From positions 32,001 to 96,000 of the forward strand of contig JAWARQ010000001.1 of NCBI GenBank assembly GCA_038893355.1: 64,000 bases of DNA, read 5' to 3'. Below the pieces are notes generated by a model. That model ran no database searches. It had not been told where the DNA came from and saw only the letters and a list, made by a program, of their open reading frames with translations. Shown piece after piece: positions 8,085 to 62,392 of the stretch. Numbering within the stretch: the stretch's first letter is position 1; each line of letters begins with the position of its first letter. This stretch comes from Sulfolobaceae archaeon. GTDB taxonomy: Archaea; Thermoproteota; Thermoprotei_A; Sulfolobales; Sulfolobaceae. The translations under genes and the position numbers were made by a program.

Positions 8085-9089
8085 ATGAGCATACAAGTAG
8101 CAAAAAGAAAAATTCAAAAATGGAAAATAGAAGAAGTTAATGATATAAAAGAAAAGATTAAAAAATATAATGTAATATTAATTGCAGACATTCAAGGATT
8201 TCCAGCTGATAAGTTACATGAAATAAGAAAAAGATTAAGGGGTATTGCAGAGTTAAAGGTTGCTAAAAACTCGTTATTTGAAATAGCACTTAGAGAATCT
8301 GGAATTAATGTTGAACAGTTTAAAAAGTATTTAACGGGCACTAATTTATATATATTTACTAATATAAATCCATTTACATTATCATTAATTTTATCTAGAT
8401 TTAATCTTAAAAGATATGCAATACCTGGCGATAAAGCTGATGAAGAAGTTGTAATTCCGGCAGGAGACACTGGATTGCCTGCAGGTCCTATATTAAGTGT
8501 ATTTGGAAAACTTAAAGTACAGACTAGAGTACAAGATGGTAAAGTGTATGTAGTAAAGGATACTGTTATAGCGAAGCCAGGCGAGGTTATTCCAGTTGAT
8601 GCGATAGGGATATTACAGAAACTGGGAATAATGCCAGTATATGTTAGGCTAAAAATAAAAGTAGCGTATGATAAAGGTCTCTTAATAGAAGGGGAGAATC
8701 TAAAGCTAAATATTGAAGAGTATAAAAACCAAATTAGCTCTGCAGCAATACTCGCATTAAATACTGCTGCAGAAATAGGTTATTTAACACCAGAAACAGT
8801 ACCATTAGTATTTTCAAGAGCCATAATGAGGGCAAGATCTTTAGCGGTAGAAATAGGTTATTTAACACCAGAAACAGTACCGCTGATACTTCAAAAAGCA
8901 TTATCAAAGGCTTATGCATTAGCTTATAGTATCTCATCAAAAGTTGATTTAGGTATTAGTACTCCTATTGTCCCACAGCAACAAGCACAGCCTACACAAG
9001 AAGCTAAGAAAGAAGAAAAGAAGGAAGAAGAAGAAAAGAAGCCGAGTGAAGAAGAAATCGCTAGCGGATTATCATCACTATTCGGATAG
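8085..9089 (+). CDS. rpl10: 50S ribosomal protein P0 (uL10)
   Basis: [25 protein letters not shown], acidic tail [13 protein letters not shown]. Confidence 0.97.
8771..8881 (+). repeat. 33-bp perfect direct repeat within P0 (8771-8803, 8849-8881)
   Basis: agaaataggttatttaacaccagaaacagtacc twice, period 78 nt. Confidence 0.95.
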
Positions 9090-9488
9090 CATAGTAAGGA
9101 AACTATTCCTTTCTCTAATACTATCGCAAATAATAATATAAAAATTAAAATATTATTTAAGCTATAGATAATTTTTCTTCTTTCTTCTCATGATTATAAT
9201 TTTATACTAATTAAGATAATAATACTAATAATACATTGGCTGTAAATGTTTATACTTTATAAAACTTTACGGAAAAAGTATAGGGTCTTACGGAAAAATT
9301 CTAGACTATGCCTAAAGTTTAACCGAAAGATTTATTACTAAACGCTACTTTTGAAAGTTTCTATCTTAAGCTAATTAGACTTTACTATTTGTCTTTAAAG
9401 AGAGAATAGACATTAAAGGAAGTATTATGAGAATTATATAATTTAACGATTTTCTGATAAACGCTAAAGATAGAGTTCGGCTTTCATC

Positions 9489-9700
9489 GTAACTAGTAGT
9501 TACTTTTCGTGACCACTAGTTACTTAGCCTCATTACTCCTCCTCCCTCCCCATGCCTAGGTTAGGGAGCATACCTCCCAGCCACGACACGGGGAGTTTCA
9601 TCGAGTACCTTCCTCTCCCTCGCAACTGCTCATAGAGTTCATAGTGGTACTCTCTGATTAAATAGCAACTACAAATCTTATAAATTTTGATAGGTTCAGC
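9489..9700 (-). mobile_element. Putative IS200/IS605-derived non-coding remnant
   Basis: GC-rich island in an AT-rich spacer; 35-nt imperfect hairpin at 9489-9523; minus-strand TATA box at 9677-9684; resembles, from memory only, the untranslated end of Sulfolobales tnpB elements. Confidence 0.4.
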
Positions 9701-9926
9701 TTATTTGATAGCGTTAAGAGGATTAGAAGTGATTAAAAATAACTGAAAGTTACGTAAACTTGTTACAGACTTATTCTTCGTAATATAACTATAATGCAAT
9801 TTAAAAACAATATTTACTTCGTATCAAACAACTTTTATATTGGCTATTAATATTGAGCATAAATGCTTTACAGAATTTAAGAGAAAAAATTTATATGTAG
9901 CGCTTTATATATGAGTTAGGATAGTC

Positions 9927-10247
9927 ATGGAGTACATATATGCTAGCCTCTTACTTCACTCAGCTAAAAAGGAAATAAGTGAAGAAAACCTTAGGAATGT
10001 TCTTTCTGCAGCAGGGATAAGTATAGATGAAGTGAGATTGAAGGCTGTAGTGGCTGCATTAAAGGAAGTAAACATAGATGAGGTATTAAAATCAGCAACA
10101 TCTATGCCTATTTCTGTAACTCCTATTGTCCCACAGCAACAAGCACAGCCTACACAAGAAGCTAAGAAAGAAGAAAAGAAGGAAGAAGAAGAAAAGAAGC
10201 CGAGTGAAGAAGAAATCGCTAGCGGATTATCATCACTATTCGGATAG
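9927..10247 (+). CDS. rpl12: 50S ribosomal stalk protein P1 (L12)
   Basis: [11 protein letters not shown]...GLSSLFG. Confidence 0.98.
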
Positions 10248-10295
10248 CATAGTAAGGAAAAAATTCTAATGACACTTTATACTAAGGTCTAAATT

Positions 10296-13652: not shown

Positions 13653-13740
13653 GGACCCGTAGCTCAGCCAGGACAGAGCGCCGGCCTCCTAAAACGCTGA
13701 AGAAAGCCGGTGGTCGCGGGTTCGAATCCCGCCGGGTCCG
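13653..13740 (+). tRNA. tRNA-Arg(CCT) with 13-nt intron (13692-13704)
   Basis: GGACCCG/CGGGTCC acceptor; anticodon arm CCGGC-CT CCT A-[intron]-A-GCCGG; GTTCGAATC T-loop. Confidence 0.92.
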
Positions 13741-13745
13741 CTACT

Positions 13746-37530: not shown

Positions 37531-38837
37531 AGGAAAAAATCTCTTTTGAACCAGTAAGAGGAATGAGGGATCTCTTTGGCGATGAGCTAGCAAAAATTAG
37601 ATATTTAGAATCTAAGTTTAGAAACGTAGTAGAAAGGGCAGGGTATAGTGAGATTGTAACTCCAATAGTTGAAGATGTGAAATTGTTTACATTAAAGGGA
37701 GGCGAAGAGATAAGGAGGACAATATATGTATTTAAAGATAAGGCTGAAAGAGAAATTGCACTTAGACCAGAATTTACACCGAGTGTAGCAAGAGTTTACT
37801 TAAACTATTTTCAACATTATCCTAAACCAATAAGATTTTACTACATCGGTACTGTGTATAGATACGATGAACCACAGTTTGGAAGATATAGAGAGTTTAG
37901 ACAAGCAGGGGTAGAACTATTAGGTTCTGAGTCTATACTTGCAGATATAGAAATGCTACAATTACTTATAGAATTTTTTTCAGAAATAAATTTATATAAT
38001 AAAATTAAAATAAAAATAAATAATATAGCAATATTCAAAGAAATACTAAATAGAAATAAAGTTAATGAAGAAGATCAAGAACATTTCTTGCATCTTGTTG
38101 ATAAGAATAAAGTTAATGAAGCTTTAGAATATTTAAAATCAAAGAATATAAATGAAATTGATCTGGAAATAATACAAAATATGTTGATTAACAAATTAGA
38201 ATATAAAAACTATAATAAACTTGTAGAATATATTAGAGAAAAAAAGAGAGATAATTTATTACCTCATATCGAAAGATTATTTAATATTGTTAATATTATG
38301 AATAATTTAGGTTATAGTGATATTATAGAAGTTGATATAGGATTTGTAAGAGGATTAGCTTATTATACTGGAATTATATTTGAAGTTACACATCCTGAAG
38401 TAAGTTTTAGTATTGCTGGTGGTGGAAGATATGATGAGCTAATAAAATTATATAGTGGTAACGAAAATCTACCAGCAATTGGTTTTGCTATAGGTCTAGA
38501 AAGAACTTCCATGTTAATAAAAGATTCTTATAAGCAAAATACTGCATCGGTTAAAATAGGTATGATTATAATTAATGAAAACGAAAAGATAGTTTCATAT
38601 GCACTTAATGTATTATCGTTATTAAGAAAGCAAAATCTTTCGGTAATTTTAAATTTAAAAGATTCTAATATTTCAAAGTTAATATCATTTTATGCTAATT
38701 TAAATTTTGATTATTTAATAATAATTGGAAATAAAGAATTTGAAAACAAGACAGTTATAATAAAGAATTTGAAAACAAGACAACAGATTGAGCTTCCTTT
38801 TGATAAAATCTCAGAAATTTCCACGCGAGTAGTTTAA
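37527..38837 (+). CDS. hisS: Histidyl-tRNA synthetase
   Basis: [40 protein letters not shown]. Confidence 0.97.
38730..38782 (+). repeat. 24-bp perfect repeat, period 29 (out of frame), in hisS
   Basis: aataaagaatttgaaaacaagaca at 38730-53 and 38759-82. Confidence 0.93.
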
Positions 38838-39831: not shown

Positions 39832-39867
39832 TTCATTATTTAAACTTGTACTTAAATAACTAGTTGT

Positions 39868-40305: not shown

Positions 40306-40306
40306 A

Positions 40307-41779
40307 ATGATAGGAGACTTTGAAGTAAAACATACTAGCCTTGCTGGTAGAATTGGTGTATTAGAAACGAGACATAGAAAGCTAGAAACCCCCATATTTT
40401 TTCCAGTAATAAATCCATTTAAAAGGGAATTTTCTGTAGAAGATTTAAAAAAATTAAAAATACAAAATTTTATAACTAATGCTTATATTCTTAAAAAAAA
40501 TAATATTATAGGAACATCTGTTCATAAATTCTTTCAATTTGACGGAACAATAATGACAGATTCTGGCGCGTATCAAATATTAGAATATGGTAAGGTAGAT
40601 GTAACTAATGAGGAAATAATAAAATACCAAGAGGAATTATTGTCAGATATCGCAGTGATCTTAGATATTCCAACAGGAAATACTGAAAGTAAGAAGGAGG
40701 CAGAAAAATCTGTTCAAGAGACTATAAAAAGGGCAGAAGAGGCTGAGAAAATTATTTCATCTGATAATGAAATAATTTGGGTATATCCTATACAGGGCGG
40801 AAGATTTTTAGACTTAGTAGAATATTCTTCAAGAAAAATTAGGGAATTTAAGAAGTATAAGATGGTAGCTCTTGGAAGTCCAACTGTAGTATTAGAAAGA
40901 TATGAGTACGAAGTCCTAATAGATATGATATATACTGCTAGGTCTAATTTACCTAGATCTTTCCCGTTACACTTATTTGGTGGTGGTTTACCACATATAA
41001 TTCCTTTTGCAGTAGCATTAGGTGTTGACTCCTTTGATTCAGCCTCGTACATACTATACGCTAGAGATAATAGGTATATTACTAGAAGCAGAGTTAGGAG
41101 GTTAGAGGAATTAGATTATTTACCATGTAGCTGTATTATTTGCCAAAAATATACTAAAGAAGAGCTTCTAGAGATGAATAAAGAGGAGAGAATAAAAAAA
41201 CTAGCAATACATAACTTACTAAAAATACTAGAAGAAATAAATGAAACAAAACAAGCAATAAAAGAGGATAGACTTTTTGAATACCTATATGAGAAATCAC
41301 GAGCGCATCCTGCAATTTATACTGCATATAAAAGATTATTAAATTATTATAAATATTTAGAATTATATGATAGTAGAATAAAAGGTGATATAAGTGGTAT
41401 ATTTCTATATGACATAGACTCATTTTACAGGCCAGAATTAGTAAGATACAAAAATTATCTTGATAGAGTAATTAAAAAGAAAAACTATGCTGTGATACTA
41501 TGTTACGACTCTTTAGATTTTATAAAAGAAAAATATAATTTTATAAAAGAAAAATATAAAGATTATGATATATACGTATATCATGAATTTTTTGGAATAA
41601 TTCCAATAGACTTAATATATACTTATCCTCTCTCTCAACATGAAAAACCAAAAATAATTTCAGAAGATGTCAAAAAATACAGCTATGAAATATTACAAAA
41701 TTTTCTTAACATGAAAAAATATGAAAAAGTAATCTATGAAGAATGCAACGAAAAATTACATATATCCGCCTCTACCTAA
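40307..41779 (+). CDS. tgtA: Archaeosine tRNA-guanine(15) transglycosylase
   Basis: MTDSGAYQ, LDIPT, PIQGG, HLFG, DSFDSASY, CSCIIC, YPLSQ. Confidence 0.95.
   Translation: MIGDFEVKHTSLAGRIGVLETRHRKLETPIFFPVINPFKREFSVEDLKKLKIQNFITNAYILKKNNIIGTSVHKFFQFDGTIMTDSGAYQILEYGKVDVTNEEIIKYQEELLSDIAVILDIPTGNTESKKEAEKSVQETIKRAEEAEKIISSDNEIIWVYPIQGGRFLDLVEYSSRKIREFKKYKMVALGSPTVVLERYEYEVLIDMIYTARSNLPRSFPLHLFGGGLPHIIPFAVALGVDSFDSASYILYARDNRYITRSRVRRLEELDYLPCSCIICQKYTKEELLEMNKEERIKKLAIHNLLKILEEINETKQAIKEDRLFEYLYEKSRAHPAIYTAYKRLLNYYKYLELYDSRIKGDISGIFLYDIDSFYRPELVRYKNYLDRVIKKKNYAVILCYDSLDFIKEKYNFIKEKYKDYDIYVYHEFFGIIPIDLIYTYPLSQHEKPKIISEDVKKYSYEILQNFLNMKKYEKVIYEECNEKLHISAST
41517..41559 (+). repeat. 21-nt period tandem repeat in tgtA
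   Basis: attttataaaagaaaaatata twice (FIKEKY twice). Confidence 0.85.
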
Positions 41780-42478: not shown

Positions 42479-42992
42479 TTTCTTTTACACCTCTCTTTAT
42501 ATTTACAGCTACACCTCTCTTATATTCCAATAATTCCTCACCAGATATTTTTAATCTTCCAAATCCTATTAACTCATCATTCTTATCAACTACTATTACC
42601 TCATCTCCTGGTCGAAGATTTCTATCCACTTCTATCACATGTTTTGCAAAAACATTATAACCTTTAGATATATATTCTTTTGCCTCGTCTATTATTATTA
42701 CTCGGTACTTTGGTTTATTTGAACATTTTTTAATTCCATTTGCTGAAAGCAAAGTTAAAGAAAATAAATAATCTTGAGCTCTTAATATTAAATATAAATG
42801 TATCTGATTTTTTTCGTTGTCATAAATATAAATGTATCTGATTTTTTTCGTTGAAGGTGATCTTTGTATATATAATACGTCACTGTTCTGTAATATTAAG
42901 CATTCAGCAGTACTATAATCAAACTGGTATTCCGCAACCCACAATAAATGTTCTACTTCTAAATTAGAAGCTTTGTAAATTCCCCTTAACAT
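42459..42992 (-). CDS. PUA-domain protein (split arcTGT C-terminal region)
   Basis: AEYQF, GYNVFAKHV, LRPGDEVIVVD, GVAVNIKRG. Confidence 0.85.
   Translation of the reverse strand: MLRGIYKASNLEVEHLLWVAEYQFDYSTAECLILQNSDVLYIQRSPSTKKIRYIYIYDNEKNQIHLYLILRAQDYLFSLTLLSANGIKKCSNKPKYRVIIIDEAKEYISKGYNVFAKHVIEVDRNLRPGDEVIVVDKNDELIGFGRLKISGEELLEYKRGVAVNIKRGVKENGEDYS
42789..42853 (+). repeat. 31-bp perfect repeat, period 34 (out of frame), in the PUA gene
   Basis: taaatataaatgtatctgatttttttcgttg at 42789-819 and 42823-853. Confidence 0.93.
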
Positions 42993-44170: not shown

Positions 44171-44242
44171 TTCTCTTCAGCTAATAAAATTAGATAAATA
44201 AGCTAATAACGTTTAAGGTAGGTAATAATCATAAGTGAGTAA

Positions 44243-44761
44243 ATGCAAAATGTAGTTAGATATTGTGAAATATGTGGTACAGAATTACGTGGAAGTGGAA
44301 TAACAATAAAGTATGAAGGCTCTATAATTACGGTATGTAATTCTTGTTATTCACGAATTAAAAAATATTCTACTATATATAAAGAAAAAAATGAAAAAGT
44401 AAAATCTAATAAAAAGCAGAGTATAGGAAAATCTAATATGGTTCAAGAATTTGAAATAGTAGATGATTATAGTAGAATCATTAAAAACGCAAGAGAGAAA
44501 TTAGGCATGACTCAAAAAGATCTTGCAAATAAATTAAAAACTTCAGAAAATATTATAAAAAGATTTGAAAGTGGTAAACTCAAACCAACAATATCACAAG
44601 CAAGAGAATTAGAGAAAATTCTCGGAGTTAAATTAGTAGTTCCAGTAGAAATCGAAGAAGTTAAAGAAGAGGCTGAAAAATACGAAACAACATTAGGCGA
44701 TATTGTAAGAATAAGGGGGGAAAAAGATGAAGGCAATAGTGGTAAGTCCAGAAAAGTATAG
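44243..44761 (+). CDS. mbf1: Archaeal MBF1 (Zn ribbon plus HTH)
   Basis: CEICG...VCNSC, AREKLGMTQKDLA, TTLGDIV. Confidence 0.92.
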   Translation: MQNVVRYCEICGTELRGSGITIKYEGSIITVCNSCYSRIKKYSTIYKEKNEKVKSNKKQSIGKSNMVQEFEIVDDYSRIIKNAREKLGMTQKDLANKLKTSENIIKRFESGKLKPTISQARELEKILGVKLVVPVEIEEVKEEAEKYETTLGDIVRIRGEKDEGNSGKSRKV

Positions 44762-45773
44762 AGAGGAGGCTATAAGCTTAGCTGAGTCAGCGGATTATAA
44801 GGTACTAAAAATAATTAATATTCCTAAAAGAAGGGATCCTAATTTTTATTTAAATAGAAAAATTTTAGATGATTTAAATAAAGAAGAGTTTGATAGTTTA
44901 ATTATATTTGATCTTTTAAAACCAAGACATTTTACAAACTTACAAAAAATTTTCATAAATAAAAAAATTTTAGATAAGGTATTATTGTTATTAGAAGTTT
45001 TTTCATTGCATTCAAGCTCAATTGAGGCTAAATTACAAATTGAATTAGCTAGAGTTAAATATGAATTACCAATTTTAAAGGATATGTATAAGAAAACGAA
45101 AATAGGCGAACAGCAAGGTCCTTTAGGTTCAGGTGCGTATGGTGTAACTTCAATAGTGAGATTATATCAAAATAAAATAAAAAGGATTATTAATGAGTTA
45201 GAAGAAATAAAGAAATCTAGAGAAACTCAAATAATGAAAAATAATCAGATACCTAGCATAGCTATAGTAGGATATACTAATGTTGGTAAAACCTCATTAT
45301 TTAACGCATTAACCGGACTTAAAAGAGCTGTAGATACAAAAATGTTTACCACGACGATACCTAAGAGGTATTCTATCACAGTTAATGGAAAAAAATTAAT
45401 GCTAGTTGACACTGTGGGCTTTATTAGAGGAATACCACCACAAATAATAGAAGCCTTCTTCGTTACTCTCTCTGAAACTAAATATGCTAATGGAATAATA
45501 TTAATGGTCGATATTTCATATCCACAAGATTTATTCATAGAGTCTATAGAGAGTTCATTTAAAATTCTTAGGGATATAGGGGTTTCTGGAAAACCATTAC
45601 TAGTAGTTGCAAATAAAATAGATAAAATAAATGGAAATATAAATTCTAAAATGGAATTTTTGTCAGAAATAATTAAAAAATATTATGAGCCAGTAATAGA
45701 TATAATACCGGTTTCAGTTAAATTTAATATTAATGTAGATAAAGTGAGGGATTCCTTATACTTACTAGTTTAA
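44727..45773 (+). CDS. hflX: GTPase HflX
   Basis: EAKLQIELA, GYTNVGKTSLFN, DTVGFI, NKID. Confidence 0.95.
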   Translation: MKAIVVSPEKYREEAISLAESADYKVLKIINIPKRRDPNFYLNRKILDDLNKEEFDSLIIFDLLKPRHFTNLQKIFINKKILDKVLLLLEVFSLHSSSIEAKLQIELARVKYELPILKDMYKKTKIGEQQGPLGSGAYGVTSIVRLYQNKIKRIINELEEIKKSRETQIMKNNQIPSIAIVGYTNVGKTSLFNALTGLKRAVDTKMFTTTIPKRYSITVNGKKLMLVDTVGFIRGIPPQIIEAFFVTLSETKYANGIILMVDISYPQDLFIESIESSFKILRDIGVSGKPLLVVANKIDKINGNINSKMEFLSEIIKKYYEPVIDIIPVSVKFNINVDKVRDSLYLLV

Positions 45774-46306
45774 AAGAAATATATGTTCTAAGACTATATC
45801 ATAGGCCAGAAAGAGATAAGAGAGTAACCACACACTTAATACTCGTAGCAAGAGCCTTTGGGGCAAAGGGTGTTTTTGTAAATGGAGACATAAGTAGTAT
45901 TTCTAAAAGTATAAAGAAGGTGCTAGAATCTTGGGGTGGACACTCTTATTTTATACTTCAGGAAGTTAAAGATCCAAAGAAGTTTGTTCTTGAATGGAAG
46001 AGTAAAGGTGGAAAAGTAGTTCATCTAACGATGTATGGAATAAATATTATTGATATTAAGAATAAACTACTTCAAGAACAATCACCATTATTAGTAATTG
46101 TTGGTTCAGAAAAAGTAGAAAGATGGTACTACGAGAAAGCTGATTATAACGTTGCAATCGGCAACCAGCCGCATTCAGAAGTTGCAGCATTGGCTATATT
46201 TTTAGATCGAATGTATGAAGGGAAAGAACTAGAGTTTAAATTCTTTGACGCGAAATATATAATTATACCACAAGAAAAGGGCAAGAAGGTGATAAGAGTT
46301 GAATAG
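45758..46306 (+). CDS. trm56: tRNA (cytidine56-2'-O)-methyltransferase (non-canonical start)
   Basis: Frame open upstream of the listed ORF: [29 protein letters not shown]; [17 protein letters not shown]; start position inferred. Confidence 0.9.
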
Positions 46307-46835
46307 TACTGAAGAACTCTTTTTAAAAATTGCAAAAGAATTATTAGGTGATGAGGTTTTAGATGTATTGCAATTTATAGTTTCAAAAGGTTATGAAATA
46401 ACAGATGAAGATATTGCAAAAGAATTAAATGTTAAAGTAAATGAAATTAGGAAAAAGTTATATTTACTAGCGGAACAAGGATTTGTAAGTTATAGGAAAG
46501 TAAGAGATAAAGACACTGGCTGGTATATATACTATTGGAAACCTAATATTGAAAATCTAAATGAAATTTTACTTAATAGGAAAAGAGCTGTCCTTGAAAA
46601 ATTAAAAGCAAGGCTTGAGTATGAAAAAGGTGGTCCATATTATATTTGCCCACAAGATACTACAAGATTTACCCTTGAAGAAGCTTTAGACAATGGATTT
46701 AAATGTCCAAAATGTGGATCACCGTTACAAGAATATGATTCTCAAAAAGTAATTAAATTTTTAGAAGAAAAAATTAAAAAACTGTCTGAAGAAATAGAAA
46801 AGGAGACAATAAGTGAAAAGGCCCGTAGTAGTTGA
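46299..46835 (+). CDS. tfe: Transcription factor E alpha
   Basis: TDEDIA, IRKKLY, GWYIYYW, FKCPKCG. Confidence 0.95.
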
Positions 46836-47787
46836 TTTATTTGCTGGCGCTGGAGGTTTTTCTCTAGGTTTCAAACTTGAATCGTATGAAGTAGCAGTAG
46901 CAGTAGATATAGATAGTGCAGCAGTAAGAACATACTCAGTAAACTTTCCTACTACAATTGTTCTTCAAGAAGATATAAAGTATCTTTCCTCGTCTGATAT
47001 AATGGAAGTACTTAAAAATAGAACGCCAGATGTTGTAATTGGTAGCCCACCATGCGAACCGTTTACTGGAGCAAATCCTAATAGATTTGAAAACGAAATT
47101 GACAGACTATATCTAGATCCAAAGGGTAATTTGACATTAGAATTTATAAGATTAGTAGGTGAATTGAAACCAAAAGTATTCGTGATGGAAAACGTACCGT
47201 CATTAGTCAGTTCAAAAAATTTAAGAAATGCCTTAATTACAGAATTTAGAAAAATTGGATACGATAAAATATACTTTAATATACTAAGAGCAGAAAATTT
47301 CGGTAATCCTTCAAGGAGAACACGTGTTTTTATATCAAATATAAAATTAGATTTAAATGAATTTAAAGTTAAAAAAATTAAGAAAGTATGGGATGTTTTA
47401 TATGACTTAGAATTTAAATTTGATTTACCAAATCATAATATATCTGAAATAAATGAAAGAAAACTTAATAAAATTTCTAAATTGAAATATGGTGATTATT
47501 TAACAATGTATAAAGGTAGCTCTGGTAGAAATATTCCACTATATATTCGTCTTGATCCAAATGATATTGCACCAACTGTTATGGGAAACTCTAGATTTAT
47601 TCATCCTTTTCATGATAGATTTTTAACAGTTAGAGAGCAAGCAAGACTAATGAGTTTTCCTGATACGCATATATTCTTAGGGAGTAAAGATGAACAGTAT
47701 AATCAAGTAGGAGAAGCAGTACCGGTAGTTTTATCACGTGTCATAGCTAAGAAAATCAAGGGTATCTTGCTTGGAAATTCTAGTTAA
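46813..47787 (+). CDS. C5-cytosine methyltransferase (orphan)
   Basis: [48 protein letters not shown]. Confidence 0.88.
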
Positions 47788-48226
47788 TATTCATAACATT
47801 ACTAGTGCGCAAAGAGTTATTGAAATTTCTAAGTTAGCCCTATCTCATAAAACTGTAAAAAATCTAGTATTAACAAAGGTTGGAGGAACAGCTGCACAGT
47901 CAGGAATTCCTGAAGTATTTAGATTTGCATATAAACTTGGAAAAAGTATAATGGTTTTACCAGATTTAAAAGATACTATAGAACTACTGAAACCTGATAA
48001 GGTAATCTTAATAAGTTCTAAAAGTAATCAAGTACTTACAAGAGAAGAGATTAAAAAATATGAAAAAGATAATAAAAAAATATTAATAGTAATCCCAGGT
48101 AATGAAGCCGGGTTTACAAAAATCGAGGAAAGTTTAGGTGAAATTTACAGAATTGAAAGTGAAATTAACGTGGAAGTTAGTCCTATTGCCATATTAGGAA
48201 TAATACTTTATTGTATCTTATCATAA
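47771..48226 (+). CDS. DUF2122 / SPOUT-like protein
   Basis: [39 protein letters not shown]. Confidence 0.65.
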
Positions 48227-48614
48227 TAAATATTTTTATATAGATTTAAATATATTTAACGAAAATAATTATAGTTAGCAAATATAATTACGTAAAAGAA
48301 ATAGTTGAGGTCCACATTAAGTTTATTAGAAGAAGGACATGAATATCCGTTTATTCCTAAATCCTCATTTTAGAAATTTTATATTCATTCATGATCAAAT
48401 TATAGGAACATAATCTTTAATCATATGGATCATTTCCTTAAATATTGGCCATAGAACTCCTTAGATAAACGACATTTAGACTAGAACTTTTTAGCCTTCA
48501 ACCCATTCTTTTAGGCATAACCTACATTGAGTTGAAAGCTCTCTATTTATTAAACAATTTTTAGTAATAAAACAATATTAAAAAATTTCTGTTAAGTTAA
48601 TGAAAAGATTAAGC

Positions 48615-48693
<79 letters not shown>

Positions 48694-49054
48694 AATTTAT
48701 TGTAAGTTATGAATGTTTATATAGTTATTTATCTTGGGCCAGGACGTAATATTGCTAATCTTGCCCTATCCTATTACAATAAACATGATGAAACTAGTAA
48801 AGGATAATGTGCATGAATACTTTAATAATTATAAACTATAAATATGATTCCTTATATAATTTGAATTATTTTTATTTATTAATTTTAGTATATATAATAA
48901 AAAGAATATTTACGTAATAAATTTTTAGTATCTTATACTAATACATCCTAGATATCAATAGAATTTACACTTTTGCACTGCCTTATATAGATTAGGTAAT
49001 GATAGATAACTTTTTATATAACCACTTCTAATGTGGTTTCGAAGGTGTTATAAT

Positions 49055-50719
<1,665 letters not shown>

Positions 50720-50720
50720 A

Positions 50721-52313
50721 TTAATCAAATTTTTTAATTTTTATAACTATAGGTATTTTTAAATTTGGCGCATCAAGTATTGCCTCTCCTATTTCCAATT
50801 TATCAAGATTTTTATAAAGTTTTTCATCTAATCCTAGAGAATCCCTTATAACTTTCTTATCAATATCTGATTTTATAGAATGTACTATTCTTATACTAGT
50901 ATTTTTAAGTATGCTCGCAGAGATTGAAGAAGGTGACTGTGATATTATTACAAATCCTATTCGATACTTTCTAATCTCTGCTAATAATCTTGTCAAAAAG
51001 CTTTCATCATCTTTAAAATAGTTGTGAGCCTCTTCTATAACTATAATAAGTTGATTTTCTCTTTTCTTTCGAATATAAATTTCTGTAATTAATCTTATTA
51101 AAAAAAGGCTATATATTAATTTTAATTTTAAATTTCTTATCCAACTTAAATCTATTATTATGTTATTATTTATATTTTCAATTAAATTATCAAAATTTTG
51201 AGTACTATCAAATAATTTATTGGCATAAGAACTAAATATTGGTGAGAGTTTTCTCAAGAGTGCAAATTTAGTCTCCCTCATCCAGTATGAGTGATCCTCA
51301 GATTCTAGTAAGGTTGTAACTAGATTCGAAGAATCAAACTTACCTAATCTTTTCATCTTATATAACGTAATACTAAGTAAAAATCTCTGTGGATCAGAGA
51401 GTTGTAGCACATCACCTAATATATCTATCACATCATCTACGTCTATGTTAACAAGGTCTAGAGGATTAATTCTTAAAGGACTATTTGAATTATATACCCT
51501 AAATCCCTTGTTAACTAGATCTAAGTATTCACCATGCCAATCCAATACTAGAATATTAGCACCCATTTTCTTAACTTCATTGATTAATACTTTTGCTGTA
51601 TTACTCTTTCCACTGCCTGTAGTCCCAAAAATACTTACATGCCTAAACAAATCCTCAAATTTTATACCAACTACTGTATTTTGTTGATAACCAATAGGAA
51701 TATCAAATTCCGTAACTACCCTAAATTGTATGGAAGGAGAGTCGTATATCGCATCTTTAATTATCACGTAAGGAAAATTTCCAAATGTAACGGGTTTAGG
51801 TATAAACTTAACATCTGAAACCTTAATGGGAGTTAGTGATATATGTGGGGCTATAACTTCAGCTAAATTTATAATTTCTAAAGCTTCTCTCTCTAGTGTT
51901 TCTTTATTATTAGAAATTATCAGTAGCGTAGATCCAGCTTTCCTTTTAATCTGAGTAAGAATGTATAGTTCTATATTAGACTCCTTTTTAGACAGCATGT
52001 TTATTAAATTCTCTAGTTCTCCTAAATAGCTCCCAACTATCTTACCCTGGTCTAGAGAGTTTTCTACTTTCATGAGCATCTTAAGCGCTATACCATAGTA
52101 TACATCATTTCCCTCTGTATATTCAAATATATTTTTATTTATATTTATTTTATTTATAATCTTTTTTATTCTATATAATCTATTAAATAATAAAATTATA
52201 AATAAAATAAATATTGGAATTACAAAAAGGAAAATAAAGGAAAAGCTTCTAAACATTAATAGGGTTACGCCTAAAAGTATTAGGAAAATAGGCAAAATAT
52301 ATCTACTCTTCAC
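50721..52313 (-). CDS. HerA/VirB4-like ATPase with N-terminal TM helices
   Basis: Two hydrophobic N-terminal segments, RHVSIFGTTGSGKS, LDWHGEY, IEEAH, RKY...SQSP. Confidence 0.85.
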   Translation of the reverse strand: MKSRYILPIFLILLGVTLLMFRSFSFIFLFVIPIFILFIILLFNRLYRIKKIINKININKNIFEYTEGNDVYYGIALKMLMKVENSLDQGKIVGSYLGELENLINMLSKKESNIELYILTQIKRKAGSTLLIISNNKETLEREALEIINLAEVIAPHISLTPIKVSDVKFIPKPVTFGNFPYVIIKDAIYDSPSIQFRVVTEFDIPIGYQQNTVVGIKFEDLFRHVSIFGTTGSGKSNTAKVLINEVKKMGANILVLDWHGEYLDLVNKGFRVYNSNSPLRINPLDLVNIDVDDVIDILGDVLQLSDPQRFLLSITLYKMKRLGKFDSSNLVTTLLESEDHSYWMRETKFALLRKLSPIFSSYANKLFDSTQNFDNLIENINNNIIIDLSWIRNLKLKLIYSLFLIRLITEIYIRKKRENQLIIVIEEAHNYFKDDESFLTRLLAEIRKYRIGFVIISQSPSSISASILKNTSIRIVHSIKSDIDKKVIRDSLGLDEKLYKNLDKLEIGEAILDAPNLKIPIVIKIKKFD

Positions 52314-52344
52314 GTAATAGTTAATCCTAATAAGACAGTCTCAG

Positions 52345-52722
52345 CTAAATGAAAGTTACGGCATTTTTTGTAAGTATTAATCTTTCTTCCCTACTTAACT
52401 TGTTAATAATCTCAAATTTTTCTTCACCCTCTTTACAACAATTTATTATATATGCCGGGCTTCCTTCTTTTGCACCTAATTTCTTAATAGCTTCATTTAA
52501 TTGAGATTCACCAGAAATTAAAAGTAAAAAAAGAAGTGTTGGATTATTTATTTTAGTATTTTTATTATTTGATATTATTTTAAAAAATAAATAACAAGCT
52601 TGCCTTACTACTGCATCACTCGGGAGTTTATTTATAATCTGCGTGACGCACTCGTTAGAATACTTAATTAGCGATAAATATTCTTTTTTAAACTCACTAA
52701 TTTCCTTAATTTCTATTCTCAT
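52345..52722 (-). CDS. Cgi121-like KEOPS subunit
   Basis: LLISGESQLNEAIKKLG; adjacent to Urm1. Confidence 0.65.
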   Translation of the reverse strand: MRIEIKEISEFKKEYLSLIKYSNECVTQIINKLPSDAVVRQACYLFFKIISNNKNTKINNPTLLFLLLISGESQLNEAIKKLGAKEGSPAYIINCCKEGEEKFEIINKLSREERLILTKNAVTFI

Positions 52723-52977
52723 CTACCCACCATGATTTATTGAAATTATTTCTACTATATCATCCTCTTTTAATTCTAATTCATTTAATCCAAAAAGTCT
52801 CCAATCTTTTCCATTTATAAACACTAAAAAATCTGGTCTTAATTTATTATCTTTAAAGATATAATCATAAACTTTTACTAATTTAAATAAATCATATAAA
52901 GAAATTTTCATATTAATTTCTACTTCTTTCTTTCCTATAGCTATAGATAGCGGTCCTCTTATTACTAATTTAGGCAT
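52723..52977 (-). CDS. urm1: Ubiquitin-like Urm1/SAMP protein
   Basis: [10 protein letters not shown]-terminal HGG. Confidence 0.85.
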
Positions 52978-53188
52978 TTTCTTCCTTCTTCTCTTCTAAT
53001 CTTTTAACTCTTTTTGCATAACGTGTTAGATATCCTGCAATTCTATTCCTAATTTTCTTTGAGCTTACTTCAACATATTTTGATACTAGTTCTTTATTTT
53101 TTTGAAAATCTAGAGTTACTTCGTCCTTAAACTTCTCATATAATTCTTCTGCTATCCTCTTTATATCCCTAGTATAAACGGTACCCAT
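52970..53188 (-). CDS. rps17e: 30S ribosomal protein S17e
   Basis: [20 protein letters not shown]. Confidence 0.97.
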
Positions 53189-53190
53189 TA

Positions 53191-54348
53191 TTACTCCACA
53201 CTCTTAGACTCCTGCTTATGAGTATATATACTCTGTTTTGCCTTAGGTATCTCTGTTTCCTTAACAAATCTATTCTTTAACTTTTCTATTACTACTGGTA
53301 GGGTTGTATATTCCATTTCCGTAGGTTCTAGTCTATGAGGCATAAATGGACCGTGCCTCCTTAAGTAATCGGTAATAATAGCAGCAATTCTTCTGGACTC
53401 ATCAAATATTGGATCATCAAATAGATCTGTAGGACCTATAAGCTTGCCTTCTTTAACATTAAAGCCTAATGCTATTAGTCTCGGTGGTCCATCAAATCTA
53501 GTAGCCCTTGCATCTCTTTGAGAAACTGGCATAAGAGGGCCATAATGACTACCTCTCATCCAACCTGCAACTAAATGTGGAAAAGAAAACGCTTCAAGAA
53601 CTTCTCCTAATGCAGGTAAGCCATGTTGAACTCTAACAATAGCTACCGGATCATCTTTCCCTACATATCTTCCTGCTATTAAGTTTAATCTCTCAACTGA
53701 CACTACAGCAGCAAGTAAATTATCATGTTTTCTATAGATCCTTCTTATAATATATCTACTAGGAGTTCCTATTAGCGCTAATATATCATAAATTTCTTCT
53801 GGTGCTGATAAAGTTACAGATTGACCTTCATATACATCTAAGACTTCAAATTTAAATCCTTCATGCATTGTTGGATCGATTACTAATCCTGCAGTATTAA
53901 ATGGGTCAGCAAAAATTCTATATAACGGTAGGTTAAATGCACCAGGTTCCGTTTTATCAGCCATGAATATAACTATTGGCTCAGAAGGTCTCTCTTCAAT
54001 ATCAAGCTCTGCTACGCCAGGACCTAATCCTCTCACATTTCCAGAAAAAGAGTCACTAAGTAAGTCTTGCCCAGCAGCATATAATCCTAACTCTTTTGCA
54101 ACTCTAGCTGCCTCTTTGAATGCATTCCACGCAACTTCATGTACTGCTGGATTATTTTCACCTTTATTATGAGTCATTATTAATTCTAAATCATCACCTA
54201 CATGAGTAATGAAATAATCAATAATAATATTATTTCTTCTTGCCTCTGCTAATACTTTATTTGCAGCAGCCATTGTATCAGGGTGAACAGTATGATGTCC
54301 CGCTAGGCTGCCAATATCAGCCTTAATTACACTTATAGTAGTTCTCAT
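53191..54348 (-). CDS. fbp: Fructose-1,6-bisphosphate aldolase/phosphatase
   Basis: KADIG, GDD, AGQDLL, DKTEPGA, YVGKDDP, FDGPP. Confidence 0.97.
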
Positions 54349-54384: not shown

Positions 54385-56187
54385 CTACTCTCTAGCATAC
54401 TCTAATGAGTAGTATTCTCCTTTCTCCTTTTGAAGTCTATCCAAATAACTTCCCTCTTTATTAATTCTTGGCCTACCTGTTTCAATATCTCTTCTAAAAG
54501 TTATTTGAACTTCTTTGAGAAATCTATTCATACCTTCTTTTACAGACATTATTTTTGAACCTATACCATAAATAGCAGGAACTCCAGTAAATACCATTAA
54601 TTTATCTGCAATATAATTATGTATTGCAAGATCATGTTCTACTACTATACATATAACGTTTCTCTCTCTCGTCACCCTTTTTATCGCCTTAGCTACAATA
54701 TATCTCTCCTCCACATCCAAGTATGATGATGGTTCGTCAAATAAGTAAATATCAGCATCCCTTGCTAAAGCAGCAGCAATAGTAACCTTCTGCAACTCAC
54801 CACCACTCAGTTCTTTAACATTAGCTTCAAGAAGTCTATGAATCCCTAGCCTTCTTATTACTTCCTCAAAAAACCAAGAAGAGGTAGAAAGTGCGTCTTT
54901 ACTTACTTCTTCTAAAAATTTCTGAACAGTTCCATCATAATTTGGTTCAATTTTTTGTGGCTTATAAGCTAATCTTAGTGGTTGAGGATATATATAGCCC
55001 TCATCAGGCTCTAATTCTCCTGCCAAAATTCTTATAAAAGTAGTTTTGCCTATTCCATTTCTGCCTAGTATACCAATTACCTCACCGCCTTTGGCCTCAC
55101 CTTCTTCTACTTCGAGTTCAAAAGAATCTAATTTTTTCTTTATTTTAGACCATTTTAATAATAATTTATTATTATTATTTATATCAAATTCACTAAAATC
55201 TCTAATTACAAATTTTATTTCATCTTCTCTAATCTTCATATTCTCTGCTGGTAAGAATCCCCTTAGAAAATTATTTATACCACTTCTTGCTGCGTAGGTT
55301 TTTGAAACTTTTCCATAAACTCCTGACTCTCCATAAATAATATTAACATAGTCCACTAAGTAATCTAAGATAACTAGATCATGTTCTACTATGAGAGTAT
55401 ATTTACCTTTAGTGAATTCCTTTATAGTCTTTGCCATATTCAATCTTTCCCTAATATCTAAGTATGATGATGGTTCGTCAAATAAGTAAATATCAGCATC
55501 CCTTGCTAAAGCAGCAGCAATAGTAACCTTCTGCAACTCACCACCACTTAAAGTCCTTATTTCCTTATTCCAAAAATTCTCCATATTCAATGTGACTTTA
55601 ATATCCTTTATTATTCCCCTCTCATCTATTCTAGAAAGAACCGATGAAACTTCACCTTTTAAATACCTTGTTAATGCTTCAACGTACTGTATCTTATGAA
55701 CTACTCTTAATTTTTTAGAATATAATTGCGAGAAATAATTATAAATCTCTCGACCTTTAAATCTTCTTAGAACCTCATCAATCGATGGTTTATATGAAGG
55801 GTCTCCGAAGTTTGGTATTAATTCACCAGAAATTATTTTTAAAATAGTAGTTTTTCCTGTTCCGTTTTTACCAATTATACCAATGATACTTCCGCTTTTG
55901 GGTACCGGTAATCCAAATAACTCAAATCCGTTTATCCTATATCTATGTATTATTTCACCGGAATATTGATCTGGTAAATTAACTATTGAAATTGCTTGAA
56001 ATGGGCACTTCTTAACGCAAATACCGCAGCCAATACAAGTCTCCTCATATATTATTGGCTTCCCTTTAACAATCTCAGAAAGTTCAATAGCTTTAGAACC
56101 GGATCTATTTATTGGGCAAAAATTAATACATTCAATATTACACTTCTGAGGTTTACAAAAGTCATAATTTATAACAGCAACTCTCAA
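54385..56187 (-). CDS. rli: ABCE1/RLI ribosome recycling ATPase
   Basis: N-terminal Fe-S cysteines (CIGCGICVKKCP), two NBDs, TGRPRINK. Confidence 0.97.
   Translation of the reverse strand: MRVAVINYDFCKPQKCNIECINFCPINRSGSKAIELSEIVKGKPIIYEETCIGCGICVKKCPFQAISIVNLPDQYSGEIIHRYRINGFELFGLPVPKSGSIIGIIGKNGTGKTTILKIISGELIPNFGDPSYKPSIDEVLRRFKGREIYNYFSQLYSKKLRVVHKIQYVEALTRYLKGEVSSVLSRIDERGIIKDIKVTLNMENFWNKEIRTLSGGELQKVTIAAALARDADIYLFDEPSSYLDIRERLNMAKTIKEFTKGKYTLIVEHDLVILDYLVDYVNIIYGESGVYGKVSKTYAARSGINNFLRGFLPAENMKIREDEIKFVIRDFSEFDINNNNKLLLKWSKIKKKLDSFELEVEEGEAKGGEVIGILGRNGIGKTTFIRILAGELEPDEGYIYPQPLRLAYKPQKIEPNYDGTVQKFLEEVSKDALSTSSWFFEEVIRRLGIHRLLEANVKELSGGELQKVTIAAALARDADIYLFDEPSSYLDVEERYIVAKAIKRVTRERNVICIVVEHDLAIHNYIADKLMVFTGVPAIYGIGSKIMSVKEGMNRFLKEVQITFRRDIETGRPRINKEGSYLDRLQKEKGEYYSLEYARE
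54719..55548 (-). repeat. 89-bp perfect repeat between NBD2 (54719-54807) and NBD1 (55460-55548) of ABCE1
   Basis: Identical DNA encoding SGGELQKVTIAAALARDADIYLFDEPSSYL. Confidence 0.95.
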
Positions 56188-56234: not shown

Positions 56235-56339
56235 TTACCATTCTTCTTCTAATTCTTCTTCTTCCCAATCCTCTTCCTCAAATTCCTCTTCTTCTAATTC
56301 TTCTTCTAACTCCTCCTCTTCCCAATCCTCTTCAAACAT
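56235..56339 (-). CDS. Hyper-acidic 34-aa micro-protein (not in ORF track)
   Basis: MFEEDWEEEELEEELEEEEFEEEDWEEEELEEEW*; GGTG RBS ~8 nt upstream; BRE/TATA-like GAAAATTATAAG at ~56375-56386. Confidence 0.7.
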   Translation of the reverse strand: MFEEDWEEEELEEELEEEEFEEEDWEEEELEEEW

Positions 56340-59388: not shown

Positions 59389-59751
59389 GTGAGCAGTGCC
59401 CCTGATTTCTTAAGACATATCGTAAGTAAGATATTAACACCGAATTCAATGGATATAAAACGATTAGAAGATGCTAGAAGATTACTTGCAAAAGCTGAAG
59501 CAAAATATAAATTTTCCTCCTATGGAGGAGATCCATCTAAACTTGCAGATTATTTAAAGAGTCCAGATTTTATTGAGCTAGTAATAGTCATAGGAATAGA
59601 TTTGGCAGAAAAGCTTTTACTTACAATTATGAATACATACAAAGATGAAAAAATATTAAGTACTGTAAAAAAAGTTCTTGAAGAGCTTAAAGGATTTGAG
59701 AATACTTCAGAGGAATCCTCAACATTAATTGTATATAATAAAAAATATTAA
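59389..59751 (+). CDS. Hypothetical protein
   Basis: 120-aa helical ORF with GGAGG RBS. Confidence 0.7.
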   Translation: MSSAPDFLRHIVSKILTPNSMDIKRLEDARRLLAKAEAKYKFSSYGGDPSKLADYLKSPDFIELVIVIGIDLAEKLLLTIMNTYKDEKILSTVKKVLEELKGFENTSEESSTLIVYNKKY

Positions 59752-59757
59752 TTAATT

Positions 59758-61461
59758 TTAATCAAGCGATGGTGAAGTTCCTCCTCCTTCTCCAGTTCCT
59801 GGCTTACTTTCTTCTTCTCCTCCCTTCTTCTCCTTACCCTTTTCAGACTTTAATGGAGATGCTGCAATTAAGTCATCAATCTTCAATATCGCAGTAGCAG
59901 CTTCAGTAGCACTCTTTAAAACTTGAGCCTTAACTCTAATTGGCTCAATCACATTCAGGCTAAGCATATCATCAACGATTCTTCCATTTACTACATCCAC
60001 ACCAGCATTAACTAATCCTTTAGCATGTCTAGCTCTTAAATCCATTAATGATGCAATTGGCTCTAATCCTGCAGTACTGGCTAATATCATTGGTATTTCT
60101 TCTAAAGCATTTGCAAAGGCTTCTATAGCTAATTGCTCCTTACCACCAACAGTTCTCGCATATTCTCTTAATCTTATTGCTAATTCTTCCTCAATTGCAC
60201 CTCCACCTGGGACTATCATTGGCTCCATTAGTATGTTTCTTAGCGAATGTAAAGCATCATTAATACTTCTTTCAGCCTCATCTAATGCCATATCATTTGA
60301 GCCTCTTAATAATATATTAACAGCCCTTGGATTCTTAGCGCCTTCAATAAACACCATTTTATCATTACCGACTCTTCTTTCCTCAACTAGTTCGGCATAT
60401 CCTAAATCTTCAGGAGTTGCATCCTTTATACTACTTATTATTCTAGCACCTAGTGCCTTTTCTAGCTTCTCGATATCACTTCTCTTTACTCTTCTAACTG
60501 CAAGAATTCCCTTCTTAGCTAAGAAGTGTTGCGCTACATCATCAATACCTTTTTGACATATTACTACATTAGCACCTATACTAGCTAATTTATCAACCAT
60601 TTCCTTAAGATATTTAGCCTCTTCATCTAAGAATGCCTTTATTTGCTCTGGACTAGTTATACTTATTTTTGCAGAGATCTCTGGCTTTTCTACCTCGAGT
60701 GCAGCATCTAATACAGCAATCTTAGCCTTTTCTACTCTCCTCGGCATTCCAGCATGTACAACTTCTTTATCTAAAACTAAACCATGCACTAAGATACTAT
60801 CTTCAATACTTCCTCCTTTCTTCTTATCAATCTTAACAAGTGATAAGTCTACATTATAACCTCCAGTAGGTAAAGGTTCTGCAACTTTAGTAACTGCATC
60901 TATTACTATATCTATTATTTTATTTAAACTTTCAGCACCTTCTGCAATAAACTTACTTGCTATTGTAGTATAAACAATCTTCCTTAACTCTGCTCTAGTA
61001 ACCGGGGAGTTTAAGTCTGATACATCAACTTTTTTACCTATTTGATATAAAATTTCTAATGCCTTATTTAGTGCTTTTTTATATCCTTCAATTATTATTA
61101 CTGGATGTATATTTTGATCTAGTAAACTATCCGCTTTATCTAATAGCAATCCTGCAAGAACTACTGCAGATGTAGTTCCATCCCCTACCTCAGCATCCTG
61201 AGCCTTTGCTGCCTCAACTAACAGCTTTGCTGCAGGGTGTTGTATCTCCATATCTTTTACAATTGTTGCACCATCATTAGTTATCGTTACATCACCAAAG
61301 CTATCAATTAGCATTTTGTCTAATCCTTTTGGACCGAGACTACTCTTTAACATTTCAGCTAGAGTTTTTGCTGCTAGTATGTTGTTCTTTAATGCATCCC
61401 TTCCAGTTGTTCTAGAAGTTCCTTCTTTAAATAATACTACAGGTAATCCAGCCCTAGCCAT
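59758..61461 (-). CDS. thsA: Thermosome alpha subunit
   Basis: [38 protein letters not shown]. Confidence 0.95.
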
Positions 61462-61681
61462 ATTACCTTCACCAACGTTATGAGTCATTAATATTCGGTT
61501 ATATAAAAATTTTTCTATTATCGCTTTAGAGCAATCTGAACTATATCATAAACGTAGAAATAAACCTATTTACTAAATAAAATTAATTTAGAAATTGATT
61601 TATTACATGATAGAGAGCTATGTTTTTATTTTTATGATAAGGATAAGGATATTGATTAGGAAAGAAATAAAAGGGATAGTA

Positions 61682-62392
61682 ATGATTTGTATAAGATGTA
61701 ACAAAAGAGAAGCAGAAGTTATTATTGCAGGGAAAAAATTATGCGAATATTGTGCGAGAAATGAGATTATAAATAGATTAAGAAAAAATATTAATAAGTT
61801 AAACTCTAATAAGATAGTTTTAATTTATTATAAATTTAATTCTGATATAAATAAAATCTTAGAATCAACTGTTAAATATATTAATATCGATAAATATTAT
61901 TTTATGGAAACTTATAATAGAATCGATAAATATTTATGGAAACTTATAATAGAATCGATAAATATTTTAAAAAATAAAAATGATATAAAAATTATAACAC
62001 CATTTACTGCCGATTTCTTAGCGGCATATACAATTTATTCTGCAATAACTGGGGAGTTTAGATATTCACAATTTATAGATTATGAGGTTATAGTAAACGA
62101 AAAAATAAAATTATATCAACCATTTTATAATATAACCCTTTCTGAACTTAATGTAATTGAAGAAGTTAAGATTTTAAATACTGGAGATCTTTTATTCGAT
62201 AAAATTTACTCATGGATTTTATCTAACTTAAAAGATAGTGAAGAATTGCTTAGATCCTTTAGGAATTCCTCATTACTTATAAAGCCTTTTATTAGTAAAA
62301 AATGTAAAAAATGTGGAGCTAATATAAATGATATTAACTCTGAATACTGTGAGAATTGTACAACTCTTGTAACTTCTTTCTTTCAGAGCTAG
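61682..62392 (+). CDS. Zn-finger-flanked protein, degenerate TtuA/Ctu-like architecture
   Basis: N-terminal CIRC/CEYC, central TADFLA and YQPFY, C-terminal CKKC/CENC; no PP-loop. Confidence 0.55.
   Translation: MICIRCNKREAEVIIAGKKLCEYCARNEIINRLRKNINKLNSNKIVLIYYKFNSDINKILESTVKYINIDKYYFMETYNRIDKYLWKLIIESINILKNKNDIKIITPFTADFLAAYTIYSAITGEFRYSQFIDYEVIVNEKIKLYQPFYNITLSELNVIEEVKILNTGDLLFDKIYSWILSNLKDSEELLRSFRNSSLLIKPFISKKCKKCGANINDINSEYCENCTTLVTSFFQS
61886..61967 (+). repeat. 35-bp perfect overlapping repeat, period 32 (out of frame), plus a partial third copy
   Basis: tttatggaaacttataatagaatcgataaatattt at 61901 and 61933; atcgataaatatt also at 61886. Confidence 0.92.

Follow-up and report, generated by a model that had tools for sequence, protein, structure and literature searches.

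Short exact direct repeats that ignore the reading frame suggest templated patch replacement in a Sulfolobaceae archaeon

Clusters of substitutions are usually taken as independent point mutations or as a result of selection, and a templated process can also write identical patches into neighbouring sequence. An older idea of 'sequence-directed mutagenesis' is said to come from Golding and Glickman, and Schultz and Drake (2008, Genetics 178:661) reportedly described templated mutagenesis at imperfect direct repeats of phage T4. Here we analyse short exact direct repeats in the metagenome-assembled genome (MAG) of a hot-spring archaeon of the family Sulfolobaceae, called G000 in the following, which an earlier note had pointed out in a window of 64,000 nucleotides (contig JAWARQ010000001.1, here C1; G000:C1:32001-96000), among them a 24-nt repeat in the histidyl-tRNA synthetase gene hisS. 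In the phage T4 case clustered changes turn a stretch into a copy of a close-by sequence of the same orientation while the length is kept, and the G000 tracts likewise consist of sequence that equals a nearby direct copy without change in length. The phage events are, however, described as rare reporter-gene events that start from an imperfect repeat, whereas G000 holds dozens of fixed tracts of 16–58 nt all over the genome, many of them out of frame in essential genes, with no detectable similarity of the flanks and with a specificity for one lineage.

Several other systems come close. In quasi-palindrome correction (Ripley's model) and in the four-point model a switch-and-return event likewise takes a patch from a few dozen bases away, which is then seen as a cluster of substitutions. 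These events copy in reverse complement, which the four-point model requires according to the excerpted text of Loytynoja and Goldman (2017; PMC5453318), and create inverted repeats, whereas the tracts of G000 are direct. Inverted copies are also named in the excerpt of a study on short-range template switching in rad27 yeast (PMC5677150). Forward copies dominate in the G000 lineage, whereas the short-range template switching studied at present mainly concerns inverted ones. In yeast break repair, as far as the excerpted report goes (PMC12891019), two-jump switches occur in which the strand dissociates, anneals at a microhomology tens of bases off or on another template and jumps back; the detached 3′ end finds its new annealing site at a distance of up to about 80 bp forwards or 40 bp backwards. 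According to the same text the two-jump switches depend on imperfect homology of about 200 bp and use another chromosome as template, and the local events are deletions and tandem duplications and not length-neutral patches as in G000. Sulfolobus acidocaldarius belongs to the family of G000 and was used as the control member of this family. The excerpt of Mao and Grogan (2012; PMC3367456) reports for this species that single-stranded DNA is incorporated and that mismatches are resolved by uncoordinated short-patch excision, with short unidirectional tracts and no MutS/MutL-type correction. Its donor is homologous DNA in register, whereas the donor in G000 would be a non-homologous neighbour 20–170 nt away, often read in another frame. 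In the limited literature collection that we searched, we found no report of a prokaryote with a direct-repeat signature of this kind across its genome.

The G000 assembly comprises 1.40 Mb in 17 contigs with 32.5% G+C and is rated 84% complete and 0.04% contaminated at a depth of about 12. It is the sole member of its genus among the genomes compared, and its nearest relatives share about 66% DNA identity in the hisS–tgtA region. Metagenome contigs yielded no closer relative in a TgtA-based search and no match to the exact 24-nt hisS tract. The window is an ordinary housekeeping region with the genes of the stalk proteins L10/P0 and P1, an AlaRS-sized and the HisRS gene, TgtA, a TGT_C2/PUA protein, ABCE1, and seven tRNAs. 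All eight repeats that had been listed for its housekeeping open reading frames (ORFs) are present at their positions, and three of them have periods of 29, 34, and 32 nt and lie within ORFs that stay open, as had been noticed. In these three cases identical nucleotides are translated in two different frames, and in two of them a Pfam domain runs through the repeat (HGTP_anticodon in hisS, TGT_C2 in the PUA gene).

The hisS repeat of 24 nt (38730..38782, plus strand, copies at 38730 and 38759, spacing 29) lies in the anticodon-binding domain, where one copy encodes NKEFENKT and the other IKNLKTRQ. The alignment to nine orthologues is gap-free across both copies and each copy fits the residues of the family; in the nine relatives only 8–16 of the 24 positions agree between the two segments in the same register. 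The TGT_C2/PUA gene (42459-42992) carries a 31-nt repeat on the minus strand (42789..42853, copies at 42789 and 42823, spacing 34). As read from the ORF sequences, loss of one copy of either the hisS or the PUA repeat would yield an early stop. The third repeat of 35 nt (61901..61967, plus strand, copies at 61901 and 61933, spacing 32, with a third copy of 86% identity at 61877) lies in a gene for a protein of 236 aa (61682-62392). Its length relative to the orthologues is ambiguous; the copy encoding LWKL agrees with the relative G016 and therefore the upstream copy is the likely target.

To put these cases into a genomic frame, exact repeats of at least 16 nt whose copies are at most 200 nt apart were counted within the 1338 ORFs of at least 100 aa (1.22 Mb coding), and the counts were compared with 20 shuffles that permute synonymous codons within each gene and thus keep every protein and its codon set. 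The ORFs of G000 contain 67 such repeats, 52 in frame and 15 out of frame, whereas the shuffles contain about 0.5 out-of-frame repeats. For out-of-frame repeats of at least 18 nt, 14 are observed against a shuffle mean of 0.25 (maximum 2) and for those of at least 24 nt 6 against a mean of 0; the in-frame repeats of at least 18 nt are also in excess (39 observed, mean 3.05, maximum 5). The 15 out-of-frame repeats are spread over seven contigs, share no common motif and lie in unrelated genes, among them those for HisRS, NMD3, glycogen synthase, Rad50, CobS, Pus10, a VTT-domain protein, and a PIN protein. Three of the 15 lie in the window, which is mildly above expectation (Poisson P 0.03). Thus the pattern described for the window is real, but it is genome-wide and not special to this stretch.

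The same pipeline was applied to 356–400 kb of each of six relatives, of which G016, G006, G012, and G007 are complete or nearly so and G004 and G005 are drafts. Although the relatives together provide 1.7 times more coding DNA than G000, the out-of-frame repeats of at least 16 nt number 0, 0, 0, 0, 1, and 0 in their 2.05 Mb coding, compared to 15 in the 1.22 Mb of G000. The rate ratio is about 25 (binomial P 4e-6), which is an indication only, as kin are not independent. The three relatives with a G+C content like that of G000 (32–33%) have 0, 0, and 1 of them. The in-frame repeats of at least 18 nt amount to 32 per Mb in G000 versus 0–20 per Mb in the relatives. The frequency is thus far above both backgrounds at which the idea of a copy-over process would have had to be given up. 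The sole out-of-frame repeat of the relatives is found in G004, which represents the nearest genus, in an ORF of 170 aa (G004:C1, joined stretch 1-200000, ORF 147128-147640), and is a perfect tandem pair with a spacing of 31 and a length of 34.

Simple tandem duplication should show as a net insertion of one repeat period, for which the alignments with orthologues were inspected. Of the out-of-frame cases, r9 has no orthologue in the DNA retrieved from the relatives, r15 has no orthologue, and the only match of r11 covers aa 611-848 and misses the repeat, so that 12 cases could be judged. Eight are gap-free (hisS, r4, r6, r7, NMD3, r12, r13, r14): the alignment is continuous through both copies and the spacer, and conserved residues are found flanking and between the copies. 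One of them is r7, a 58-nt tract with a spacing of 89 in a conserved protein of 300 aa that aligns without gap to 11 orthologues. The tract of 25 nt in NMD3 is gap-free as well; one copy holds a conserved CxxC and is therefore evidently the source copy. The other four judged cases are r5 and r8 with one additional amino acid each, the PUA gene, which is 4–6 aa longer than its nine orthologues at the repeat, and r3, which is ambiguous. The in-frame set comprises 31 repeats of at least 20 nt in 20 genes, of which 13 repeats in 12 genes were judged; q8, q13, q15, q18, and q19 (no match), q10 (partial match), and q12 (26% identity) were left out. An insertion of the size of the period is seen in none of the 13, one alignment at 36% identity having small scattered gaps. 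Thus the proposed length neutrality holds for most cases and fails for three, and on these alignments simple tandem duplication, which had already been held unfit because of the periods, is excluded for the length-neutral cases.

In several in-frame cases the relatives reveal which copy was overwritten, and in several the target segment is there unlike the source. An example is q2 in a gene resembling those of glycosyltransferases: IKSQDVVI stands in G000 where the relatives have INDDDKVV, and it repeats the same segment 16 codons further downstream. Prior similarity of target and source is seen in the relatives for q5, q11, and q14 and is not seen for q2, q7, and q16. The earlier note had proposed that imperfect nearby repeats become perfected. 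This is borne out in part: it would fit q5, q11, and q14, and seems to fit less well the in-frame targets that were unlike their source, the hisS pair, and the out-of-frame class in general, where the 15 nt on each side of the tracts show an identity of 0.32 and 0.295 versus 0.326 at random positions of the same offset. The edges of these tracts are hence sharp. The flanks of the in-frame tracts show slight prior similarity (0.378 and 0.380 versus 0.354).

The 67 repeats in ORFs have a median spacing of 45 nt, a median tract of 21 nt, and a median gap between the copies of 21 nt, and 43 of the 105 repeats found within 1.5 kb fall into the spacing bin of 25–50 nt, the fullest one. If repeats are called tandem-type when the tract is at most 3 nt shorter than the spacing, 9 of the 67 are of this type and 58 are interspersed. 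The tracts contain 78% A+T compared to 67% in coding DNA, and 49% of their nucleotides are A; in the terminal 5 nt at either end of the tracts no motif is seen beyond the general A/T richness. A search that tolerates mismatches gave 19 high-scoring out-of-frame pairs, of which 13 are perfect, and therefore the events are recent or the copies are kept identical. Spacings divisible by three make up 5 of 12 in regions called non-coding versus 52 of 67 in ORFs, and this contrast is the expected mark of selection against patches that scramble the frame.

Patches of identical sequence thus exist in the DNA of G000, on seven contigs, far exceed chance and the relatives, and are mostly length-neutral. 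These observations call for a process that copies the same strand from a near neighbour, mostly comes back in register, depends little or not at all on prior similarity, and prefers A+T-rich DNA. On balance we lean towards the view that the lineage has an unusually active short-range templated patch replacement that works in forward direction, keeps the length, and proceeds by a double template switch; the mechanism is what we infer. A patch of about 16–58 nt would be replaced by an exact copy of a same-strand, equally oriented sequence at a distance of about 20–170 nt, with the length usually kept, sharp patch edges, and no regard to the reading frame. While DNA is synthesised in replication or repair, the frayed nascent 3′ end might detach in A+T-rich DNA, re-anneal at a microhomology a few dozen bases away, copy a short stretch, and then go back to its proper place, so that two template switches would be needed in all. 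Selection would then remove patches that break the protein, and this could account for the fact that out-of-frame patches are rarer within genes than outside and that both copies are still translated into acceptable protein. The suggestion that this lineage replaces sequence by templated copying without net length change has accordingly withstood all the tests that were run, while its mechanism is our reading.

A number of points weigh against the double switch. The PUA gene with its additional 4–6 aa as well as r5 and r8 are not length-neutral. Next to the orthologues, both copies of hisS, r4, and r13 look native, so that the number of residues changed in these genes must be small, and yet the flanks are without prior similarity. 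Single switches, which yield a tandem duplication or deletion, would be expected more often than double ones, yet the tandem-type repeats are the minority, and this favours a mechanism that keeps the length by itself. The density of the repeats is similar in ORFs (56 per Mb) and outside (63.5 per Mb, 12 events), which is hard to reconcile with strong purifying selection. With the closest genome at about 66% DNA identity, no event is polarised by phylogeny, and the single event per patch is a presumption. NucS, Dpo4/Dbh, FEN1, RadA, and PolB1 are all present in G000 as open frames, so that there is no obvious cause. Finally, all evidence comes from one MAG with read-level support in one stretch of 16.8 kb; confirmation by a second study concerns hisS, and the other 12 out-of-frame repeats are known from the MAG alone.

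The main rival is ectopic short-patch gene conversion, which we consider unlikely on the whole but by no means negligible. Here a displaced strand, for example an Okazaki flap or a resected end, would form a misaligned heteroduplex or anneal as single strand in the wrong register, and the mismatches would be resolved patch by patch, by which the length is kept automatically. This agrees with the kept length of 8 among the 12 out-of-frame cases judged and of all 13 in-frame ones, with the few tandem-type repeats (9 of 67), and with the in-frame targets that resembled their source beforehand (q5, q11, q14); moreover, recombination in S. acidocaldarius is reported, in the excerpt cited above (PMC3367456), as short-patch conversion within heteroduplex. 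On the other hand the out-of-frame flanks are at background identity and the hisS segments of the relatives agree at 8–16 of 24 positions, and so poor a heteroduplex would be unstable in a thermophile without help. Patchy resolution should further give mosaic tracts, but 13 of 19 are perfect, and the relatives, which are assumed from S. acidocaldarius alone to recombine alike, nevertheless show one event in 2.05 Mb coding. Slippage offers another route, namely a tandem duplication followed by compensating deletions or frameshifts that restore the frame and roughly the length. True tandem duplications do exist in G000 (173 nt on C6; 31 nt and 16 nt on C2, where the spacing of the pairs equals the tract length), and the additional residues in the PUA gene, r5, and r8 would be explained. 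Nevertheless we regard this route as improbable, since 8 of the 12 out-of-frame cases are gap-free through copies and spacer and thereby already contradict it, removal of one copy in hisS or the PUA gene leads to an early stop, and neither abutting copies (58 of 67 repeats are interspersed) nor an insertion of one period is what the class displays.

That the repeats are an artefact of assembly, polishing, or the library is more improbable still. A MAG of 17 contigs, 84% complete and with a depth of about 12, invites this suspicion, and the comparison with reads covered 3 of the 15 out-of-frame repeats. The stretch is contained in whole or in part in fourteen public runs, which come from seven studies, and four of them (X1, X2, X3, X14) were aligned, on 37500-54300. 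In X1, the probable source run, the Logan k=31 contig runs from 37500 to 42818 with 0 differences and spans the hisS and tgtA repeats. The X1 contigs break between 42818 and 42824, exactly at the repeated 31-mer of the PUA gene, as a de Bruijn graph must do if the copies are identical in the reads. A contig of 329 nt from a different study (X3, 38597-38925) has 0 differences over the hisS repeat; among the pieces listed for X2 and X14 none covers the repeats. Divergent copies in the reads, which would have spoken for a consensus error, were thus not encountered in the independent X1 assembly and the X3 contig. In addition, a 24-nt repeat is below the k-mer size so that graph collapse cannot create it, open ORFs and lengths equal to the orthologues are not expected from random artefacts, and of the two draft relatives, G004 with its 40 contigs has 1 out-of-frame repeat and G005 with its 80 contigs has 0. 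Chance in A-rich, low-complexity coding DNA or selection for a DNA- or RNA-level function of each single repeat is the explanation that we believe least. The tracts are indeed 49% A, and in two tracts of 19 nt each, r13 and the A-rich run r4, both copies encode residues that are conserved in the relatives, so that little change was needed. But the synonymous shuffles yield 0.25 where 14 are observed, the three relatives of equal G+C (32–33%) have 0, 0, and 1, and the 15 tracts are united neither by a motif nor by any relationship of their genes. This explanation is therefore contradicted for the class as a whole, while it may hold for one or two of the shortest tracts.

If template switching were general in G000, inverted repeats might also mark it. 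Exact inverted repeats with arms of at least 16 nt are not enriched (6.4 per Mb versus 0–7.5 in four relatives), those with arms of at least 14 nt amount to 17 per Mb versus 0–12.5 in the four relatives, and with 12-nt arms the excess is at most twofold; overall they are not clearly enriched. Inverted repeats as a mark of general template switching were hence rejected, and so was inverted short-range switching as the origin of the tracts, as all tracts discussed here are direct repeats.

The replication and repair genes, which the earlier note had proposed to inspect, offer a lead but no obvious cause. Loss of the obvious guardian genes was rejected, as NucS, RadA, PolB1, FEN1, and Dpo4/Dbh are encoded. 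PolB2 and PolB3 were not found in G000 by Pfam model or with the proteins of the relatives. PolB3 is present in relatives (G016:C1:806626-808989; G006:C1:2079544-2081892), and the G000 orthologues of its flanking genes are located on C2 near 59.6 kb and on C1 near 293.8 kb, both in contig interiors; therefore PolB3 is missing from its conserved locus and is not hidden by a contig break there. For PolB2 a genuine loss was not upheld, since its neighbour in G006 maps to the very end of the G000 contig C3 and a gap in the assembly suffices as explanation. In S. acidocaldarius a triple deletion of polB2, polB3, and dbh is viable and large deletions and tandem duplications keep their share of the pyrE events, according to the excerpted report (PMC7785828), and therefore PolB3 loss gets no support there as the cause. 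We treat the loss of PolB3 as the cause of the patch process as a lead only.

It is possible, though rather doubtful to us, that the lineage runs a forward copy-paste mutator which, by frequent same-strand patches of 16–58 nt that keep the length, rewrites several codons at once even in essential genes and which was perhaps unleashed by the loss of the accessory polymerase PolB3 during genome reduction. If this is true, it would be the direct-repeat counterpart of quasi-palindrome correction and a hitherto unrecognised route to multi-residue protein change in prokaryotes. From 83 mostly perfect tracts in 1.4 Mb, a rough estimate of the patch rate is 1 per 100–200 point substitutions. More generally, G000 would be one genome in which a templated process acts at a rate that shapes essential genes, and its lineage is a natural system to ask which replication and repair activities hold nascent strands in register at high temperature. 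Exact out-of-frame repeats in open ORFs are a simple genome-wide statistic by which similar lineages can be found, and where these archaea are dated or tested for selection from alignments, the tracts call for care.

The earlier note had further suggested that one process is behind all eight repeats of the window, and this does not hold. The two longest repeats, and perhaps the internal one of P0, have a different origin and resemble known concerted evolution by gene conversion, in which homologous segments are identical over 62–142 nt as in the relatives; the out-of-frame class is not covered by it. The 142-nt exact repeat (148 nt at 99%) comprises the 3′ ends of the P0 gene (8961..9108, exact 8961-9102) and of the P1 gene (10119..10266, exact 10119-10260), both on the plus strand, and the identity continues 19 nt beyond both stop codons. 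An exact repeat of 62–124 nt at the same 3′ ends is found in 12 of 12 relatives (one per genus), and therefore the repeat is family-wide concerted evolution of the shared stalk tail. In ABCE1, which has two ABC_tran stretches, an 89-nt repeat links the two homologous nucleotide-binding domains (54719..54807 and 55460..55548, minus strand, spacing 741). Two of the 12 relatives (G003 and G008, loci L151 and L152) have tracts in this register that are exact over 100 and 102 nt, with spacings of 741 and 738, whereas the remaining relatives have exact tracts of at most 23 nt; thus intragenic conversion between the ABCE1 domains recurs in the family. The tracts of G003 and G008 surround the region of the signature motif. 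Judged from these comparisons, P0/P1 and ABCE1 are ordinary homology-driven gene conversion between paralogous segments and separate from the out-of-frame class: homologous donor and recipient in register are found for these two alone, whereas the copies of the 15 out-of-frame repeats are in different frames and have flanks at background identity.

The remaining three repeats of the window are in frame. The P0 gene contains a 33-nt exact core of a 56-nt repeat of 82% identity (8771..8881, plus strand, core copies at 8771 and 8849, spacing 78) between adjacent repeated protein segments; for this repeat (q0) the relatives hold both segments, which are mutually unlike, and the length is unchanged. 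In tgtA a repeat of 22 nt (41517..41559, plus strand, copies at 41517 and 41538, spacing 21) lies in a loop of variable length, which is no longer than in 11 orthologues. The 16-nt repeat listed for hisS is part of a 21-nt pair of 90% identity (38050..38121, plus strand, copies at 38050 and 38101, spacing 51; family D15).

Outside the window, the densest tract gene after a repetitive protein of 808 aa on C8 is rad50 (G000:C4:72700-75291), whose coiled-coil carries six in-frame exact repeats of 22–49 nt and one out-of-frame repeat of 19 nt. The duplication of 173 nt on C6 (G000:C6:59482-59827; locus L105 583-928) is a perfect tandem copy of the upstream region and first codons of a transporter-like gene, which leaves a truncated ORF of 50 aa in the first copy and is a true gain in length, unlike most tracts.

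The two copies of the 142-nt repeat enclose a non-coding P0–P1 spacer of 837 nt (9090..9926), which lies outside the copy-over class. In the relatives the two genes are nearly adjacent, with about 230 nt from the end of P0 to the 3′ end of P1. The relatively G+C-rich core of the spacer (about 9520-9700) recurs at 77–90% identity on C1, C9, C11, and C15 and is probably the remnant of a dispersed small element; the sole Rfam match of the spacer is to Sso133, a Sulfolobus sRNA (minus strand, 9546-9611), and is sub-threshold with 29.9 bits versus a gathering score of 44. At 13653-13741 ARAGORN calls an 89-nt tRNA whose four-base anticodon reading is unassigned; the Rfam tRNA model matches it at 60 bits, and it probably contains an intron. 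Finally, an imperfect repeat with a period of 12–15 nt and units rich in TTC/CTC is located between ABCE1 and a tRNA-Arg gene (56240-56333), and its opposite strand would encode an acidic low-complexity stretch.

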